Shown: one piece after another, positions 8,710 to 31,311 of the stretch
Numbering within the stretch: the first letter of the stretch is position 1
Layout of the letters: every line of letters starts with the position of its first letter
Virus record (IMG/VR): IMGVR_UViG_3300022690_000367
Strand: one strand, 5' to 3'
Length of the DNA: 38,299 bases
Origin: a virus
Translations under genes and position numbers: made by a program
The notes under the pieces: generated by a model
Told to the model about the DNA's origin: nothing
Seen by the model: only the letters and a program-made list of their open reading frames with translations
The model's database searches: none

Positions 8710-9522
8710 TTAAATATTATTTCTATTTTCAAACTCTTCAACCGTTGTCGCCTTAATGAAGAACTTTCTGTTTTCTTGCATTAAATCTCTTTCTTCTGTT
8801 GTAAATATCCCACCCTTCGTTGGCGCTCTCCATAACATATCTGTTTCTGTTTTTTCCATATCCTGCCAATAACCACCCGCCAAGTTATAATCTTCATTAG
8901 CTAACGCTTCTTTAATCCCTGCAATAGAGTCAAACTTATCTCTAACCAACCTATATAAATCAAGCAAATCTCTGATATTGATTTCATTAGCTTTCATGCC
9001 GTCATCGTCAGTATCAGCCGTAACAATGCCTAGCGCGCCGATTAATGTGTACCTTTGAAGATAGCTGTTAGACGAACCGATGGCTTGTATAGCATTTTTA
9101 GAGCCACTAGCATCCATTGGTGCGCTCATGCTTGTAGATTCTGAGTGGCCGTTTATATGCGTAACGATACATTTAACAGTCATTTCATTATTTTTCACTG
9201 ATTGCTCATAACGAAATGATAAGCCACATTCATTCAAAGGTTTTTTAATGACTGCGTGAATACTTGGTAGGGTCGCATATTTGCAGTTGTGACCGCTTTT
9301 ACCCTTTAGCACTGGCGGGCATATGCTTTGGAAGTCACTCATTGCCTGAACAAATAATCTTTTGGCTTCTTTCTCTTCAATTCTTTCTTGTAAATCCATT
9401 AATTTACTTAACTTATCAACGTCTGCATCACTAGTTATAGCCAACTCAATAAATCTATTAACCTGATCGCCTTGATTAATCACAGTGATATTTGATTGTT
9501 TACTTACTTTAAGCTCTTTCAT
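8710..9522 (-). CDS. erf: ERF-family single-strand annealing (recombination) protein
   Basis: The motif AIQAIGSSNSYLQRYTLIGALGIVTADTDDDG matches the conserved ERF core (GSaxtYaxRYxLxxxLGI..dDDdg). Confidence 0.7.
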   Translation of the reverse strand: MKELKVSKQSNITVINQGDQVNRFIELAITSDADVDKLSKLMDLQERIEEKEAKRLFVQAMSDFQSICPPVLKGKSGHNCKYATLPSIHAVIKKPLNECGLSFRYEQSVKNNEMTVKCIVTHINGHSESTSMSAPMDASGSKNAIQAIGSSNSYLQRYTLIGALGIVTADTDDDGMKANEINIRDLLDLYRLVRDKFDSIAGIKEALANEDYNLAGGYWQDMEKTETDMLWRAPTKGGIFTTEERDLMQENRKFFIKATTVEEFENRNNI

Positions 9523-13209: not shown

Positions 13210-13285
13210 CGCGGTATAGTGTAGTCGGTTAGCACATGGTCCTTTGAAGTCCATAGGTTGGGTTCGAATCCCGATACCGCTGCCA
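13210..13285 (+). tRNA. tRNA-Gln (anticodon UUG), 76 nt with encoded CCA
   Basis: Hand-folded cloverleaf: D stem GTGT/GCAC, anticodon loop CTTTGAA, T arm TTGGG-TTCGAAT-CCCGA, acceptor 6 bp plus a C1:U72 mismatch, discriminator G73, then CCA. Confidence 0.8.
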
Positions 13286-18135: not shown

Positions 18136-20439
18136 TTAACCAAAAAACATAATAGTTATAGCTCTGGTTGAGCCTAATCTGTTTTTAATGTTTACCGCTC
18201 CCGTTGCATCAACCCATAAATTTAGGTCTCCATCGGTATCAGGGTTTGCTCCCGCAACAGAGTGGTCGATTAGGTTGGCTGTATTGGAGTTCTTGGCTAT
18301 AATGTTTCCGCTCGGACCTTCGCATCCGAATATGCCTTGTGTTAGATGGGTTCCGAAATTCACATTAACCATGATCATGTGATTGCCTTTAGCAAAACCA
18401 CGAATATCGAATACGTGCGTTGCATCGTCAGCAAGAGAGACAGATTGAACTGATAAAGCACCACCTGAATTTTTATTGCCGTCAAATAACGCACCCCCGG
18501 CAAGCATTGGCGCTCTGCCTGCAGTGGCACCTATCTCATATTTCCGGATAATACCTGCAAACCCTAACCCACCGCTAAGCACACCAAGGAAACTACGACT
18601 ACCACCGCCAACATCATTGGAAAACTCAACATCACTACCACTAGTATTACTAATGTTGTTTGCACTTAGAGTAGCATCAACATGATTATCTTGTAATGCA
18701 ATAGGATTAAAATTGAAGTTACCTGAAATCCCATCTATTATGATAGAACCAATAGCTCCTGTTGTGTAACTTGAAATCGTTGCGTGGTCTACATCCCCAT
18801 TCTCCATTGTTACGTTTGTTATACTGACAAGACTGAAAGGCTTAGCTGATGAAGTTACGTTCAATTGTAGCCCAACATAAGCAGCTAAAGTATTAGATAG
18901 TGACGCTAAAACATCATTGTAAATCCTAATATTATCAACGGTAACTGTACCACGCCTTTCACCAAAATCAGTACCTTGAAAATAAGAAACGGGTATATAT
19001 GAAGTCGAGATTGGACTTGTTGTATCACCAATTAAAAATATAGTTTGGTTTTTACAAGTTCCTACTCCGTATTGTAAATTAAAATCAATAGATCCACCGC
19101 TAATTGTCCTGCTTCCTGTATCACCATCACGAACAACAACATTGTCATGGGTGTTAGGTACGCATTGATATTTTTCAGATCTTCCAATTGGGTTTATATA
19201 AGTGTTACTGTGAGATTCTACTGAAACCGGAGCATGAGCATTTATACCACTACCACCAATAGGGAAATTAGTAGGGTCTGGAAGCTTGGCAAAGAAATAA
19301 TCAGTATCATTGTCTGAAGCCCCTGTATCATCTGTATCTATACCGGAATAAACATTTTTTGTATGAAGGATAGCTCTAGGGAAAAGCGTTGGGCTAATAT
19401 CTTGAACAACCATTGTTTGTGTTGCCACAGTTCCAAGACCTGATACCCGTGTTGTATCTTTATGCACTCCACCAGACACATCGACTAATTCAAAACTACC
19501 CCTAACAAAAATGTTGGTATTGAATAAAGTAGTTAACGTTGCTCTAAAGCTTGTTGATTTACCTTTAATAACACAGGTTGGTAAAGGCGAAGTCATGGCT
19601 GTGCTATTCTCAATTAACCAACCAGCGCACATCAGGTTGTTACCATCACTATTTATATCGTATCTGAAATCGAAACCGTCACATTCAATTGTTATCATAT
19701 TTCCAGCAGTGGCAATACCAGACCACTTAATAATGCCATCACCAATTATTCTCTTATCGTTAGTTAATGTAGCCAAGGAGATAACGGAATCCATAGAACA
19801 TTCATCTGAGAATATAATACTGTAAACGTCAGACTGTAATAGGCTTAATATTGCCGCCGAACTATCAGAGCTGTCATAAGTAATACCCCATGCCGCTGCG
19901 TCTACTGTATCCTCAATAACTCTGAGTACAAAACTAATTGAATTATCTGCTACACCAACAATGATATTAAATGTATTGGGTGTTACGCTTGAAGTTAAAA
20001 CAACATCGTAAGTTCCTCCCCCACCGTTTCCGGTTGAAAATTCTGCTGTTCCGACTATATCGTTAACAATGTAAGTATTATTTGTGTTACCCGTCATTGT
20101 TGCCGTAGTTAGCTCCTGCCCTGCAACTTTCCCACCCACAAAGGTTATAATATTATCAGCTATTTGCAGAGCGTTTGTTGTGTCGTTGTCGTCGGCTTCT
20201 GCCGCTGTTGGTATTATCCATAAGTCATAAGGACCGTCAATAAATGGAATAACTAACGCTGAGCCTGCTGTAACCGGAAATCCTTGAGAATTTAATTGGA
20301 ATTTTGACGCGGTAGTAAGCCCTGTTATATCGGTTGCCATTGTTTTGGGTGTGGTTGTACCTTGCTCAAATGCTTTAATATATTGATTAGCAAAGTCTTC
20401 GTATTGTAGCGCTGAAAAAGCTATTGGAGCGAGAGCCAT
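18136..20439 (-). CDS. Tail fibre / tailspike protein (767 aa)
   Basis: Largest distal virion gene. Rich in T/S/G/N and beta-structure. Last gene of the structural operon. Confidence 0.6.
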   Translation of the reverse strand: MALAPIAFSALQYEDFANQYIKAFEQGTTTPKTMATDITGLTTASKFQLNSQGFPVTAGSALVIPFIDGPYDLWIIPTAAEADDNDTTNALQIADNIITFVGGKVAGQELTTATMTGNTNNTYIVNDIVGTAEFSTGNGGGGTYDVVLTSSVTPNTFNIIVGVADNSISFVLRVIEDTVDAAAWGITYDSSDSSAAILSLLQSDVYSIIFSDECSMDSVISLATLTNDKRIIGDGIIKWSGIATAGNMITIECDGFDFRYDINSDGNNLMCAGWLIENSTAMTSPLPTCVIKGKSTSFRATLTTLFNTNIFVRGSFELVDVSGGVHKDTTRVSGLGTVATQTMVVQDISPTLFPRAILHTKNVYSGIDTDDTGASDNDTDYFFAKLPDPTNFPIGGSGINAHAPVSVESHSNTYINPIGRSEKYQCVPNTHDNVVVRDGDTGSRTISGGSIDFNLQYGVGTCKNQTIFLIGDTTSPISTSYIPVSYFQGTDFGERRGTVTVDNIRIYNDVLASLSNTLAAYVGLQLNVTSSAKPFSLVSITNVTMENGDVDHATISSYTTGAIGSIIIDGISGNFNFNPIALQDNHVDATLSANNISNTSGSDVEFSNDVGGGSRSFLGVLSGGLGFAGIIRKYEIGATAGRAPMLAGGALFDGNKNSGGALSVQSVSLADDATHVFDIRGFAKGNHMIMVNVNFGTHLTQGIFGCEGPSGNIIAKNSNTANLIDHSVAGANPDTDGDLNLWVDATGAVNIKNRLGSTRAITIMFFG

Positions 20440-20441
20440 GA

Positions 20442-22616
20442 TTAATTACCTTCTTCTAATTCATTTATAAATAGATAACCCACTAAACTCGAGTCCTGTA
20501 AATTTCTTTGTTGTTCTGTACTTAATGTTTCAACCCATCTTTTATAAGGTCGTGTATCTTTTAACGCTGATTCTGCTTTCTGTAGCCCTTGAGATGCCGC
20601 TTTATTACCTTCAATCACACCCTCTTTTACGGATCTTCTAATAATCGCTTGGAATTGTGGTGATGCCAACAAATCGGAAGCTCTTTTAGCCCCGCTAGTT
20701 CCTTGCTGTAGAAATTCTAAGCTTGCATTTGTCATGAATGATGCTGTAGGGCTCCCTGTAGCCGCGGCAACGACGCTTGGTGCGGCTCTCCCTATCATTC
20801 TCCTAATAAAACCCGTTTCCTCATTAAACATGGCGTTTAATCGACCTGTAGTTATTCTATCTCCCAAAGCTCTAGATATTCCGCTTGATACTTTAAATAA
20901 GTTTTGTACGGCTTGCTGTGATCCTGGTGGTAAATTTTCAAATAACTTTTTCTTTACTGCTGGAGAACGCTCAATATTTTGAAACCATTTAGTAAACTGA
21001 GTCGGATTTAATGATTGTTGACCAACTCCGGAACCTCTAAATACGTCGTTCATAGCAGTAAGAACAACTGATTGCCTTTGGTTTTCAGGTATTGCGTTAA
21101 TCACTCGATTAAATCGATCTATATCATTTTTAGCCAAACCTTTAACAGCTCCCGCCACATTGACAGATAAAGCCTGATTTAAATCCTTCCCTAAAAGAGT
21201 TGTTATATTGTCTTCCAGTACTTTTCGTTGCGTTATTAATCCTTTGGCTGATGTTGTTATATCGCCAAACCCGGCACCTTCGGCTATTGCGTCCTGATCT
21301 TTAGATAACCTAGCGTACAGAGCTTTTAATAATCCTTGCTCTGTATCTTTAAAAGAACCAGACTTTTTATTAATAGCCTGACCTACCTCTCTCCTGATTT
21401 GATCTATTTTGCCTAATGTTGGGTTTATAGTCTCAGCACCCGAAAAAGTAACTCCACCAACAGCAGGATCGACAATTCTTGTGCCTCTTGTGGTTTTTGG
21501 CTCTAAATCATTTAGTATACTTCTTAATTTCGGTGGAAGTTCTTTTATCCCACCCAACTCTCGTATTTTACTCTGAATAAAATCAACTGTTTCAGGTGCT
21601 GGAAATCGTTCTGACTTCGGTAAAACTTTAGCAATTGTTCCATAAACATCATCGGCTTGTTGCGCCAAGCTATCTACAGTAGCTAAAGAGTTACGTTTGA
21701 AATCAATATTTAATTGCCCTTTATCTAAAGTCCCGCCGAAAGTTTCAATTAAATCATCAGCTCTTTGTGATAGATTTGATATAAAGGCTTTTGTTTGCAC
21801 ATCTAAAATGCTAGAAGGAACAGAGGCTAAACCCCCTTCAACGGCTCTAAATTGAGGGTTCCTACTTGCAAAACTTGCTAAAGGTTCAACGTTAATACCT
21901 AACTCGTCAGCAGCCCTAAAAAACTCTTTATCCGCATTAACTAAAGCCGCTAAATCTTCATCTGTTCCTTTTTTAATGACATCTGCTACAGGCTTTAATG
22001 TGTCTTCGGTTACGGCCTTTGATTTACTGTCGGTTATAGCTTTTAATATCCTAGGCTCTCTCGCGAATTGCCTAGCCACAGCTTGACCTGGTACAGCACC
22101 CCTTAAAAAAGCGCCTTCAATTAACGCCTCTGGTGCCGCTTGTCCGATGGCACCACCAATTCTCCGACCTCTTTCACCCAACAAAACTTGTCCGGTGATT
22201 TCGCCGATCTTAGTGATAAAATCACCAGCATCTTTTGACAGCTCGATAATTTTATCTATGCCTGGTAATTTCAATAAACTTTCTAATCCGCCGCCTATAT
22301 CCTGTAATGCCTGTTGGCCTTCCTCACTTAATTCAGGTGTTAATAATTCTTGCTGTCTTGCTACTTCTTCCGCACCAGCTTCAGCCCCTTCAAGAGCTGT
22401 TGTAACTAAACCTCCCAAACCAGATATAGGTCTTGTAACGGCACCTGCACCGATAAAGCCTACAGCCTCACCCACTCCTTTAACACGCCTAGCTAGCTCT
22501 ATAGGGTTAAATCCAAATATATCTTGAACGGCTTGTCCTGGTGCCTGCTGTTGTGGAATGTCAGCTAAGAGATTAACAGGTTGTCTTTGCTGAAGTTCTG
22601 CTAATAAATCAGCCAT
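20442..22616 (-). CDS. Internal virion / ejection protein candidate (724 aa)
   Basis: Large, alpha-helical, A/G/L/Q-rich. Lies between the tail genes and the fibre, as in podovirus core-protein clusters. Confidence 0.45.
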   Translation of the reverse strand: MADLLAELQQRQPVNLLADIPQQQAPGQAVQDIFGFNPIELARRVKGVGEAVGFIGAGAVTRPISGLGGLVTTALEGAEAGAEEVARQQELLTPELSEEGQQALQDIGGGLESLLKLPGIDKIIELSKDAGDFITKIGEITGQVLLGERGRRIGGAIGQAAPEALIEGAFLRGAVPGQAVARQFAREPRILKAITDSKSKAVTEDTLKPVADVIKKGTDEDLAALVNADKEFFRAADELGINVEPLASFASRNPQFRAVEGGLASVPSSILDVQTKAFISNLSQRADDLIETFGGTLDKGQLNIDFKRNSLATVDSLAQQADDVYGTIAKVLPKSERFPAPETVDFIQSKIRELGGIKELPPKLRSILNDLEPKTTRGTRIVDPAVGGVTFSGAETINPTLGKIDQIRREVGQAINKKSGSFKDTEQGLLKALYARLSKDQDAIAEGAGFGDITTSAKGLITQRKVLEDNITTLLGKDLNQALSVNVAGAVKGLAKNDIDRFNRVINAIPENQRQSVVLTAMNDVFRGSGVGQQSLNPTQFTKWFQNIERSPAVKKKLFENLPPGSQQAVQNLFKVSSGISRALGDRITTGRLNAMFNEETGFIRRMIGRAAPSVVAAATGSPTASFMTNASLEFLQQGTSGAKRASDLLASPQFQAIIRRSVKEGVIEGNKAASQGLQKAESALKDTRPYKRWVETLSTEQQRNLQDSSLVGYLFINELEEGN

Positions 22617-23995
22617 TATTGAATGCCTAACTGTTGAAATAATTGATCTCTGGTTAATCCAGGATTTGCATTTAAGGTGTCTTGAATATCCTGTTCTGAA
22701 ACAACTCTACCTAACACCGAACTATTAAACTGTCCTGCTTGTTGTGCTGGCTGACCTACTTGTTGTGCCGGTTGCTGTACTTGCTGTTGTGGTGACTGCT
22801 GCGTTGTTTGTTGAAACCCCCCTTGTTGACCTTGTTTAGATCTCAAAAACCCTGCAATTGTCCCACCTTGATCTAAAAATTGAATCTGTTCGTTAAAATA
22901 ATCTCTTAATTTTCCTTGAGCAACCTTCTTTCTTTGTAGAACGTCTCTCAACGCTGGTCCGTCCAAACCCGTATCTAATGCGATTCTTTGGGCTAAATCT
23001 AATTCTCCTTGAGACAAGGCTCCAAAAGTAACCGATCCAATAACATCTAATGCAAGCTCTCCTTGTATCTGGTTTAGCTCTCTAGTTGCCGCTTTTATGC
23101 TAGGAAAAAATTGTTCTGCTGCACCTGTTCCAGCCCCACGATCTAGTGCAGCCAATGCCCTATCAATAGTGTTGATATTTTTAGTTATCCCAGCGACCCT
23201 CTCGAATCCTTTGTCAATCGCTTTAGCTCTTGATGAACCAGTCAACTCACCAAACTTTTCTCGCTGTCTAATGGTAGCTTTACTTGCTCCGACCGTCTCA
23301 GCAGTGACTTGCTCACCTTCAACTGTAGCAGGAACTAGCGTTTGTTTTACGGGATCAAAAACATGCGGAACGCCACCAACATCGACCGTTTTAGCAGCCG
23401 CCCCAACAGGAGGAGCAATTAACCTTAGTTTTATAGCTGCCGCTCTCTGTGTGGCAGTCATATCTTTAACTGGAATTAGTTTCCCTGTCTCTTGGTTAAT
23501 CGCACCTTCAAGGTCTTTCTGTAAATCGCCTCGCTCTCTTTGACCTGCAGTTAATCCTGTTTGACCTCTAAGCCCTGAAAGCTGCTGTCTACCTCTTTCT
23601 ATTGCATCGGTTGCCCTTTGTTTTAGTAAGCCTGGGTTTGATTGCAATAGTCTCATCGCTTCATCAGCCCTATCTACAGGCTGTCCCGAAGCTTGAAGTT
23701 GAGTTCTTAACTCATTAAGATTTTCTTGAGCGCCTTGAAAGTCTCCTGAATCTATGAAGTCAACTAATTCTTGCGAGTTATCAATACTTGCAATTAGATT
23801 TTGTCTACCCTGCTCGGCCTGCAACCCTAACTGTTGGCTTTCTACATTAGTTTGCAATAATTGTTGTCTCAGAGGTGCTTGAGCCTGGCTTTCCCTTAAT
23901 TGATTAAGGTCAGATACATTACGAAGCGCGCTGCTGAAAACGCTCCCTATATCTGCTGGCCGTATTCCTAATGATATTCTTGGATCGACTGCCAT
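22616..23995 (-). CDS. Internal virion protein candidate with a Q-rich low-complexity segment (459 aa)
   Basis: ORF track. QGQQGGFQQTTQQSPQQQVQQPAQQVGQPAQQAGQ near the C-terminus. Confidence 0.45.
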   Translation of the reverse strand: MAVDPRISLGIRPADIGSVFSSALRNVSDLNQLRESQAQAPLRQQLLQTNVESQQLGLQAEQGRQNLIASIDNSQELVDFIDSGDFQGAQENLNELRTQLQASGQPVDRADEAMRLLQSNPGLLKQRATDAIERGRQQLSGLRGQTGLTAGQRERGDLQKDLEGAINQETGKLIPVKDMTATQRAAAIKLRLIAPPVGAAAKTVDVGGVPHVFDPVKQTLVPATVEGEQVTAETVGASKATIRQREKFGELTGSSRAKAIDKGFERVAGITKNINTIDRALAALDRGAGTGAAEQFFPSIKAATRELNQIQGELALDVIGSVTFGALSQGELDLAQRIALDTGLDGPALRDVLQRKKVAQGKLRDYFNEQIQFLDQGGTIAGFLRSKQGQQGGFQQTTQQSPQQQVQQPAQQVGQPAQQAGQFNSSVLGRVVSEQDIQDTLNANPGLTRDQLFQQLGIQ

Positions 23996-23998
23996 TGG

Positions 23999-24637
23999 TT
24001 ACTGCCTCAATTGATTGCTTGGTGTTGTTGTTTGGCCTGAAAGGATGCCGCTTTGAATTAACCCTTGAAGAACTCCACTAAATCCTTGCTGCCTTGCGTT
24101 TTCAGCACCAACTATACCACCAGCTTGAACCGCCCCAATATCTGTTAATAGACCGCTTATGTTTGATCCGACGCCTAACGCTGTATTCGCTTGGCTTTGT
24201 GCGATGCCTTGACCTATTCCTAATAATCCGAAAATATCTTGCCTTTGTCTATCAATAAGAGGTTGAGCTTGTAATAAAACATTGCTTGATAATTGCTGCA
24301 GGGTATCTCCAGCACTTAGTCGACCTCCAGCCGCCGCACTTGATAAAGTTTGTTGATTGGCATTTTCTAGAGCTAGTTGGAATAATGGATTGTTTTGTAA
24401 GAAATCAAACTGAGCCTGTGGATCGCCTAAAAACCCAGATAACCCTATACCTCTTTGGCCTAGCTCGCTGAAAGGTTCTAAAAAACCTAAACCTTGTTCC
24501 TGTGCGCGCCGCTGCTCATCAATCGCTAGCTGTGCGGCTCTCTCTTGTGCGCTACCCGCCCTTCTTGACGCTCTGCTTGCGCTTCTTGAGCTGATTATAG
24601 ATCCAACAACGACGGCCCCTGCTACCCATCCACTCAT
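23999..24637 (-). CDS. Internal virion protein candidate with an N-terminal hydrophobic segment, G/Q-rich (212 aa)
   Basis: MSGWVAGAVVVGSIISS hydrophobic start. ATGA coupling to the SET gene. Confidence 0.45.
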   Translation of the reverse strand: MSGWVAGAVVVGSIISSRSASRASRRAGSAQERAAQLAIDEQRRAQEQGLGFLEPFSELGQRGIGLSGFLGDPQAQFDFLQNNPLFQLALENANQQTLSSAAAGGRLSAGDTLQQLSSNVLLQAQPLIDRQRQDIFGLLGIGQGIAQSQANTALGVGSNISGLLTDIGAVQAGGIVGAENARQQGFSGVLQGLIQSGILSGQTTTPSNQLRQ

Positions 24638-25485
24638 AATAAGTCACCACTACGCTCTCTAAAATTAAGTACATCTCTATAATTTATCGTTATCTCTTCG
24701 TTTTCCCTGATGTCTGAGTTTGCGACAAAATAAAACATATCTTTTTCATAAAAAGGAACGCTATTGGCGTAAAACGCATGATTTGAATACCTGCCTGCAA
24801 TTGTTCTCTTTTTACCTATTCTGGCCGGGCAGATTATCTCCCCTTTATTTATTTGTTTTTTTGTAAAGAGTCCGATCCCGCTTAATTTTGATTCCTTTTT
24901 ATAAATATATTCATAGCCAAGCGGCATATCAACAACATCATTTGCTGTAACCATCTCATCCATCTGTTCTTGGTTTATTCCTAACTGCGATAAAAACTTA
25001 TTGTAATCTAGGTTATTCAATTCTTTATAGAAACTGTCATACTCCTCATAAGTTAATACAGAAGTATAATCTAACATCTTATTTAGTGGGACATTTTCAG
25101 GAACTTGATTGACCGTCATCCAAACAGTGTCGCTTATAGCTAATCCAGCCTGTCTTTTGCCAGACTTAGCTGATATTACATTAAATCCCTCATAAGTATT
25201 CTTTGGACCATCTGCTGAAATTATTGTAATTTCACCGCTAACCATCATTTCAATATGATCAAACTTATATATTCGACCTGTTATTAAAGCGCCCGCTGGT
25301 ATTGTAATTTGTCTACAATAGAGACCACCTGAATAATATTCTTTTAGCTGGTAGTCTTCATCGGTTAATTGGGGAAGTTTTTTAAGTTCAGATTCTAATT
25401 TATCAAACAAAGTTCTACACTTAACAGCCGGTAAGTTATCGAATTGATCTATTATTCTCATAATAGTTTTATTTTCTTCAGTCAT
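24634..25485 (-). CDS. Cupin-like N-terminal region fused to a C-terminal SET-domain (lysine methyltransferase fold) protein
   Basis: C-terminus SGIGLFTKKQINKGEII...GRYSNHAFYANS...IRENEEITINY matches the SET motifs GxG / NHSxxPN / GEEITxxY (compare chlorella virus vSET). Confidence 0.6.
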   Translation of the reverse strand: MTEENKTIMRIIDQFDNLPAVKCRTLFDKLESELKKLPQLTDEDYQLKEYYSGGLYCRQITIPAGALITGRIYKFDHIEMMVSGEITIISADGPKNTYEGFNVISAKSGKRQAGLAISDTVWMTVNQVPENVPLNKMLDYTSVLTYEEYDSFYKELNNLDYNKFLSQLGINQEQMDEMVTANDVVDMPLGYEYIYKKESKLSGIGLFTKKQINKGEIICPARIGKKRTIAGRYSNHAFYANSVPFYEKDMFYFVANSDIRENEEITINYRDVLNFRERSGDLL

Positions 25486-25527
25486 TGTTTAATCCTGTTT
25501 TTTCGATTATACCATAGTTTAAATCAA

Positions 25528-25872
25528 TCATATGTCAATCTCTGTAACTGTGAGTTTACCGTTAACCCTATTGTTGTCACCTACCTTTACCTGTAATATT
25601 CCTCCACTCAGCAATGCTTGCCCTATAAGACCTGGAGCTAGAAAGTTATCCTTACCCCTGATAGTTCGATCGGTTATTACCTCGTCAAAAATATCACCGG
25701 TACCAGACTGAATTAAACGGATAGTAATCGTTGTATTAGTTGATGAATAATTATTAAACACAATCGCATCAATTCCAGCCCTTGATTTGTCAGCAGGCAC
25801 AGAGTAGATAGTTTGAAATACCGTAGTTAAATCAAACCCTGCGCCAATTGGTGTTAGTGGATTGCTAGCCAT
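25528..25872 (-). CDS. Virion-module hypothetical protein (114 aa)
   Basis: ORF track. Confidence 0.55.
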   Translation of the reverse strand: MASNPLTPIGAGFDLTTVFQTIYSVPADKSRAGIDAIVFNNYSSTNTTITIRLIQSGTGDIFDEVITDRTIRGKDNFLAPGLIGQALLSGGILQVKVGDNNRVNGKLTVTEIDI

Positions 25873-31292: not shown

Positions 31293-31311
31293 AAAAAGGG
31301 GCCTAAGCCCC
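31293..31311 (-). terminator. Intrinsic terminator just after the major capsid gene
   Basis: Minus-strand RNA reads GGGGC-UUAG-GCCCC followed by UUUUU, beginning 6 nt after the capsid gene stop. Confidence 0.6.

Follow-up and report, generated by a model that had tools for sequence, protein, structure and literature searches.

A cupin fused to a minimal SET domain in the ejection-gene region of a podophage

The window studied here is the whole of IMG/VR virus record IMGVR_UViG_3300022690_000367, a stretch of 38,299 nucleotides (nt) that, from the protein annotation of its open reading frames (ORFs), is apparently the complete genome of a temperate podophage. On its minus strand, a point that the preliminary description of this DNA had not stated, lies a late gene for a two-module protein that is co-expressed with the DNA-ejection proteins. 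The N-terminal module is a cupin. The C-terminal half, on solid evidence from sequence and structural modelling, is a genuine minimal SET domain with its S-adenosylmethionine (SAM)-binding and catalytic motifs intact. It is very probable that the protein joins a cupin to a catalytically competent SET lysine methyltransferase and that it is tied to the ejection cassette. Beyond the preliminary description, the analysis identifies the cupin as the conserved core of the genomic slot, the SET domain as accessory to it, and the SET-I insert as the part that this SET domain lacks.

A cupin joined to a minimal SET domain

The peptide strings given in the preliminary description (SGIGLFTKKQINKGEII, GRYSNHAFYANS, ENEEITINY and YSGGLYCRQITIPAGALITGRIYKFDHIEMMVSGEITII) are all present in the translation. 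Its reading of a SET domain had been made to depend on a profile match to the SET fold, and such matches are clear. Against Pfam PF00856 (SET) the protein scores 31.9 bits (E=1.8e-7; gathering score 22.4), and a profile of the C-terminal ~98 residues searched against PDB sequences finds MLL1 (3.4e-10), EZH2 (2e-8) and the small chlorovirus protein vSET (6e-7), with SETD8 and NSD also among the matches. A profile is needed for this, since a single-sequence search of PDB returns only marginal matches to cupins. An AlphaFold2 model of residues 132-283, with a predicted local distance difference test score (pLDDT) of 83.5, retrieves nothing but SET/PR domains among its top 50 Foldseek matches in PDB, vSET (3kma) being one of them. 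Nearly all of the 37 homologs found by database search are likewise flagged PF00856.

In an alignment of 26 of these sequences, with 27-67% identity to the window protein, S199, G205, A230-G231-R232, N235-H236, N241, E264 and Y269 are invariant, and G203, the first glycine of the GxG motif, is kept in at least 90%. The SET motifs of the window protein also recur in the Burkholderiales and reversed-order clades described below. Such invariance of the SAM and catalytic motifs at low overall identity is hard to explain unless catalysis is retained, and from it we infer SAM-dependent methylation of protein lysines as the activity of the SET module.

The profile match to MLL1 falls into two stretches, the GxG/GE region lying on SET-N and AGRYSNH...EEITxNY lying on ARFINHS...EELTYDY. 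The gap between the two is ~10 residues in the window protein as against ~45 in MLL1, and therefore the SET-I insert, which contributes to the substrate and lysine channel, is essentially missing. In vSET, about 37 residues separate SET-N from the NH motif. Between the cupin and the SET domain there is a helical pre-SET segment, of which residue D160 is nearly invariant in the 26-homolog alignment. The segment also precedes SET in proteins with the reversed, SET-cupin order (cluster P0080) and in a separate SET gene on contig L013; because every arrangement that has SET has this segment too, it is part of the SET module.

The full-length AlphaFold2 model (pLDDT 89.4, predicted template-modelling score 0.76) consists, from N to C terminus, of two helices, a beta-barrel at amino acids (aa) 48-127, the helical linker at aa 134-179 and the SET domain. 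The cupin-like fold suggested earlier for the N-terminal half is borne out by Foldseek, which places RmlC-like cupins (3fjs, KdgF, TM1459 and EutQ, with E from 2e-6 to 4e-5) at the top of the PDB matches to the full model and, within the top 50, finds almost entirely small cupins or cupin-containing proteins. Q39, in the conserved LPQ motif, is invariant across the cupin family, as are Y56, R58, G70, G84 and G109 within the module. The classical metal motif, G(X)5HXH(X)3-4E(X)6G with the histidine of a second motif, is not found: the window protein has Y73/D76/H77 at the corresponding place, H77 is not kept family-wide and is replaced in the BPP-1 homolog, and the second-motif histidine is absent. 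Since the canonical metal ligands are not conserved, the barrel is regarded as non-catalytic. A JmjC-like or other metal-dependent cupin enzyme was considered and rejected, there being no conserved His/Asp/His triad and the top fold matches being RmlC-like, not JmjC.

The cupin slot and its SET passenger

The cupin is far more widespread than the SET domain. Homologs found with a cupin profile number at least 1,737, and the top 120 of these are of two kinds only, cupin-only proteins of ~140-170 aa and proteins of ~270-296 aa that carry PF00856. The cupin alone matches about 60 phage records, including Vibrio, Ralstonia and Shewanella phages, Bordetella phage BPP-1 (Bbp23) and Thalassomonas phage BA3, and it matches PHROG 12032 and 24280, which are labelled ‘short tail fiber’ and ‘tail fiber adhesin’. 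The cupin-only podophage proteins in these PHROGs (BPP-1 Bbp23, RSK1 gp13, BA3_0007 and phiAp1 gp43) are homologous to residues ~20-158 of the window protein, with 24-40% identity and E down to 4e-22, and the BA3 protein A8HNX0 also matches it structurally (E=5e-15). Unlike the window protein, they have neither the pre-SET helices nor the SET domain and are ~140-220 aa long. All but the BPP-1 protein are encoded in the same slot upstream of ejection or internal-virion genes.

This slot, which the cupin family occupies with few exceptions, has a regular form. The cupin or cupin-SET gene is followed at once, in many cases with an overlap, by a P22 gp7-like gene (PHROG 598) and then by genes for larger ejection-type proteins. 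The arrangement is found in Pseudoalteromonas phage PH1, in Thalassomonas BA3 and Ralstonia RSK1, in three metagenomic P22-like contigs (L004, L006 and L012) and in a Paraburkholderia prophage that also carries P22_portal, P22_CoatProtein and Phage_stabilise genes. The cupin gene of phiAp1, of the Autographiviridae, has the gene for tail tubular protein B on one side and that for the first internal virion protein on the other. The window gene, overlapping its P22_gp7 neighbour in a slot kept in many phages, is thus encoded within the ejection cassette, and the cupin is the conserved core occupant of this slot in P22-like and some T7-like podophages.

The SET half, in the phage genome collection, occurs in only five distinct genomes (eight records), each time fused to the cupin. 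Cultured carriers are Pseudoalteromonas phage PH1 (gp49) and Rhodoferax phage P26218. Searching with a profile built on the SET module and its helices yields 203 proteins, nearly all of fusion length and almost exclusively cupin fusions. The order of the modules is not fixed. In cluster P0080 (96 members), hidden Markov model coordinates and Pfam place the pre-SET helices and SET at ~20-136 and the cupin at 148-244. A gene of this reversed type (P0080/P0147), at 10001-10849 of contig L012, occupies the same slot upstream of ejection genes, an arrangement seen on many contigs. Contig L013 (4994-5918) has one gene for the cupin (175 aa) and another for SET (136 aa), in different frames and with an overlap of 14 nt, which may be either a genuine split or an assembly frameshift. 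An apparently standalone SET gene on L014 is uninformative, as the sequence upstream of it is a run of N marking an assembly gap.

In a neighbour-joining tree of 150 cupin cores, the proteins with SET fall into at least four separate clades, and a SET-bearing clade of the Burkholderiales has the SET-less RSK1 protein and clusters P0041 and P0042 within it. SET is thus an accessory passenger of the cupin, present as a fusion in either order or as an adjacent separate gene, or absent. Taken together, these findings show that SET has been gained or lost repeatedly and that selection keeps SET and cupin physically close.

In BPP-1 (L009, 7531-8450), Bbp23 lies directly downstream of, and is overlapped by, Bbp24, a GNAT acetyltransferase (PF00583, 30.1 bits as against 20.7). 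Here, for the second time, a cupin adjoins a putative lysine-modifying enzyme.

The ejection cassette and the rest of the window

Features of the cupin-SET gene and of the genes that follow it are collected in Table 1. Along the minus strand, the genes for small and large terminase, portal, scaffold, major capsid protein and a P22 gp10-like ‘head closure’ protein are followed by the tail region, where several proteins without annotation precede the cupin-SET gene and four large proteins come after it. The TGA of the cupin-SET ORF overlaps the ATG of the next ORF, so that the translational coupling noted in the preliminary description is there to be read in the sequence, and the coupled gene is of the P22_gp7 family. 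An AGGA is found 7 nt 5' of the cupin-SET ATG, at 25493-25496 in plus-strand numbering.

Table 1. Positions of the modules and motifs of the cupin-SET protein and of the downstream ejection genes in the window
Feature	Position	Strand	Basis
Whole ORF, cupin-SET fusion protein, 283 aa plus TGA stop, ATG start	24634..25485	-	ORF list; PHROG 34170, full length, E=1e-48
N-terminal helical segment, aa 1-35, ending in conserved LPQ motif	25381..25485	-	AlphaFold2 helices aa 3-17, 20-34
Cupin beta-barrel core, aa ~36-130, without conserved metal triad	25096..25380	-	Foldseek; AlphaFold2 strands aa 48-127
Helical linker / pre-SET segment, aa ~134-180, D-Y/F-x-x-F-L motif	24946..25086	-	AlphaFold2 helices 134-141, 146-168, 172-179
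Minimal SET domain without SET-I insert, aa ~190-283	24637..24918	-	Pfam PF00856, profile against PDB, Foldseek
GxG motif G203-I204-G205, SAM-binding turn of SET-N	24871..24879	-	Aligns to GRG of MLL1
N235-H236, NH of RFINHS-like motif (AGRYSNH)	24778..24783	-	Invariant, 26/26; aligns to MLL1 ARFINHS
Y269, Tyr of EEITxNY (ELxFDY-type) motif	24679..24681	-	Invariant; aligns to last Tyr of MLL1 EELTYDY; codon TAT
ATGA stop/start overlap with downstream ejection-protein gene	24634..24637	-	Direct reading; plus strand tcat
P22 gp7-family DNA-ejection protein, 212 aa, 0 Lys	23999..24637	-	Pfam PF25688 P22_gp7; PHROG 598
Second ejection-cassette protein, 459 aa, Q-rich, gp20 position	22616..23995	-	Position and size; PHROG match weak
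Third ejection-cassette protein, 724 aa, gp16 position	20442..22616	-	PHROG 6704, 1e-83; PHROG 770 ‘DNA transfer protein’, 1e-20

Three internal-virion-like proteins had been proposed downstream of the fusion. The first of these is well supported, scoring 31.3 bits against Pfam PF25688 (gathering score 28) and matching the ‘DNA ejection’ family PHROG 598 at 1e-22, and the third is supported by PHROG 770; the second has only a weak PHROG match. The sizes of the three (212/459/724 aa) parallel those of P22 gp7/gp20/gp16 (229/471/609 aa). A fourth large protein of 767 aa, encoded at 18136-20439 on the minus strand, matches PHROG 33142 and has no Pfam match; it may be a tailspike or fibre or a further internal protein.

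The lysine content of these proteins bears on what the enzyme could modify. There are 17 lysines in the gp20-like protein (3.7% K and 13.7% Q) and 43 in the gp16-like protein, and none among the 212 residues of the gp7-like protein, 13.7% of which are glutamine. The coupled gp7-like protein can be set aside as the methylation substrate because it has no lysine to methylate. Its lysine poverty does not track the presence of SET: similarly lysine-poor gp7-like proteins occur in phages without SET, and the gp14 of RSK1 also has 0 lysines. Several putative outer virion proteins of the window are lysine-poor as well (major capsid protein 2.9%, gp10-like protein 2.7%, a 495-aa protein 1.2%), compared with 8-10% for terminase, integrase and Erf.

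The cupin-SET gene has a GC content of 33.5%, against a genome mean of 38.5%. This might suggest recent horizontal acquisition, an explanation that was rejected as its third-position GC (GC3, 0.282) is typical of the genome (range 0.24-0.36); the low GC arises from a composition rich in K, I, N and Y. A sigma-70-like match (TTGACA, 16 nt, TATGGT) lies just 5' of the gene at 25511-25538 on the minus strand, its significance being doubtful: promoter-like matches in the region are not enriched, with 46 found and 36.6 ± 6.2 in shuffled sequences.

Elsewhere in the window there are genes for an Erf recombinase and an integrase. The integrase-like and Erf-like ORFs, at 5308-5973 and 8710-9522 respectively on the minus strand, suggest a temperate lifestyle; the integrase-like ORF, at only 221 aa, is short and may be truncated or have been given the wrong start. 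Just 3' of the major capsid gene there is a strong terminator-like hairpin (GGGGCTTAGGCCCC and then TTTTT, 31298-31311, minus strand), as there is in P22, lambda and HK97. A tRNA-Gln gene with anticodon TTG is found in the early/middle region (13210-13285, plus strand), and the ejection-cassette proteins are unusually rich in glutamine (13.7%). A DNA search of the phage collection found no close nucleotide-level relatives of the window, whose capsid protein shares ~49% identity with its counterparts in a Bradyrhizobium phage and Pelagibacter phage HTVC106P.

Possible roles of the fusion and their significance

In the mechanism that we favour, the cupin would anchor the enzyme to the set of ejection proteins, with which it is co-expressed and to whose gp7 homologue it is translationally coupled, and the SET methyltransferase would ride on the cupin. 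The fusion would enter the procapsid with the ejection proteins and be delivered into the next cell. There, as infection begins, it would methylate a protein of the host or a phage protein ejected along with it, in analogy with vSET, which PBCV-1 packages. For an effect on a new host, delivery with the virion is required, given that the gene is part of the late structural operon. That SET is distributed as an accessory suits a host-directed or counter-defence role, and its almost exclusive occurrence fused or adjacent to the cupin, in both orders, argues that SET depends functionally on the cupin. Packaging and ejection, which the preliminary description had raised as a possibility, are plausible from the position of the gene; we would put packaging and delivery of the fusion with the ejection proteins somewhat short of even. 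More doubtful, although the most novel, is the full scheme in which the cupin loads the enzyme into the capsid and the injected enzyme methylates a host protein or shields the lysines of co-ejected phage proteins. Candidate host targets under this scheme are a nucleoid-associated protein, a translation factor or a defence protein.

Several points weigh against delivery of a working enzyme. The channel for substrate and lysine normally has SET-I as one of its walls, and with this wall missing, activity could be altered or could depend on a partner. The pseudoknot and SAM pocket are deduced from fold matches of the model and from the presence of the segments that bear the motifs. The slot rule is not absolute, as the BPP-1 cupin Bbp23 lies between terminase and portal. 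No virion proteomics was found in the literature for any homolog, cupin-only relatives included, and no solved virion structure is among the top 50 PDB fold matches of the full model. Nor can anything be transferred from the occupants of the slot in P22 and T7. P22 gp14 (in the order gp26-gp14-gp7-gp20-gp16) and T7 gp13 (gp12-gp13-gp14-gp15-gp16) hold the identical position but belong to different PHROGs and, unlike the window protein, have no enzyme domain, and neither has detectable sequence similarity to the cupin; homology was rejected on hhalign probabilities of 0.9% and 0.2% respectively, leaving them as positional analogs only.

Methylation could instead take place in the producing cell, the cupin docking on ejection or other virion proteins and SET methylating their lysines during assembly without the enzyme itself being packaged, for instance to adjust folding or solubility, to gain resistance against host proteases, or to block host defences directed at lysine. 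Late expression in the structural operon and coupling to the ejection genes would be expected of such a modifier, as would cupin-only relatives forming the conserved core of the slot if the cupin is a morphogenetic factor. The gp20-like and gp16-like proteins do have lysines, and the GNAT beside the BPP-1 cupin hints at a link between cupins and lysine-modifying enzymes. However, the protein to which the fusion is most directly coupled offers no lysine, and the lysine poverty of gp7-like proteins does not follow the presence of SET. The frequent loss of SET fits an accessory, host-directed function better than virion maturation, and no report of lysine-methylated virion proteins in these phages was found in the literature. 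Assembly-time modification, for any of these purposes, is a possible explanation but not, in our estimate, a probable one.

Two further explanations seem improbable. The enzyme could act on a host protein late in the same infection cycle, unpackaged, its position being an accident of moron insertion. The patchy, accessory distribution of SET and the sigma-70-like match just upstream (25538-25511, minus strand) would suit this idea, but a random insertion is hard to reconcile with a SET domain that is almost always fused or adjacent to the cupin, in both orders; GC3 gives no sign of recent foreign origin, and promoter-like matches are not enriched over shuffled sequences (46 as against 36.6 ± 6.2). 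The protein could also be a non-enzymatic minor component of the tail or fibre, with SET reduced to a degenerate binding module. The tail-fibre labels on PHROG 12032 and 24280, which RefSeq copies, and the loss of SET-I from the canonical substrate groove are in its favour. Against it, no experiment behind these labels could be traced in the literature, and the SAM and catalytic motifs do not vary although overall identity is low, which is hard to explain without catalysis. In the model, the architecture is not that of a fibrous trimeric receptor-binding protein: two small globular domains with enzyme-like cupin and SET fold matches are joined by helices, with no fibre-like repeat or trimerisation element.

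The closest known counterpart of the favoured mechanism, delivery of the enzyme with the ejection proteins, is PBCV-1 vSET (A612L), an H3K27 methyltransferase. The resemblance of the phage domain to this small viral SET protein, suggested in the preliminary description, holds both for the profile (E=6e-7), with shared GxG, NH and Tyr motifs, and for the fold (3kma; TM score 0.61 on the target, root-mean-square deviation 3.8 Å). vSET is packaged in the PBCV-1 virion and is thought to act at the start of infection (PMC7019647). Unlike the phage protein, it is a standalone 119-aa dimer that keeps a SET-I segment and targets a eukaryotic histone, whereas the phage SET has ~10 residues at the SET-I site, a helical pre-SET segment, a tie to a cupin and a host without histones; packaging, established for vSET, is a proposal for the phage protein. 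The cellular SET enzymes that give the best profile and fold matches (MLL1, EZH2, SETD8, NSD1 and bacterial effectors such as Legionella LegAS4) share its SAM and catalytic motifs and differ from it in having SET-I, pre-SET and post-SET elements, large regulatory contexts and eukaryotic histone substrates.

Capsid-borne enzymes that act at the start of infection are familiar among phages: P1 DarB, T4 Alt and the N4 virion RNA polymerase are examples for which packaging has been shown experimentally. The concept is the same as that proposed for the phage SET protein, but the folds and chemistries are unrelated.

Recognition of the domain itself is not new, because databases already name such proteins automatically. 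NCBI lists ‘SET domain-containing protein-lysine N-methyltransferase’ in Paraburkholderia prophages, UniProt has ‘SET domain containing protein [uncultured Caudovirales phage]’, and GenBank MW202744 points to the vSET structure. The earlier remark that SET domains have no established role in tailed phages agrees with a literature search, which found no paper on the function of a phage SET protein, no mention of phage in a review of bacterial SET proteins, and only unrelated papers under ‘Bbp23’; an apparent mention of a ‘SET domain’ in a phage-tail review refers to immunoglobulin I-set domains. What appears to be undescribed is that cupin-SET proteins form a family with a fixed position in the ejection cassette, that permuted and split forms of it exist, and that SET-I is nearly absent.

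Lysine methylation by SET domains is a hallmark of eukaryotic chromatin control and is known in bacteria mainly from effectors aimed at eukaryotic hosts. The module described here recurs in tailed phages and prophages, among them marine and freshwater phages and prophages of the Burkholderiales. A conserved and, judging from its motifs, apparently active SET domain tied to a phage-specific cupin in the ejection cassette points to a bacterial or phage protein as substrate, and so to an unexplored layer of phage-host interaction. The family also provides a SET scaffold that is very small, since it lacks SET-I, and that can help to define the minimal requirements of the fold, and a large podophage gene family mislabelled ‘short tail fiber’ can now be assigned both a fold and a genomic rule. 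If the injected-enzyme scheme is true, the fusion would be a prokaryotic counterpart of chlorovirus vSET and the first example of a phage that uses protein-lysine methylation as an injected weapon, and the cupin would be a general cargo adaptor, with the GNAT that neighbours it in BPP-1 as a second cargo.

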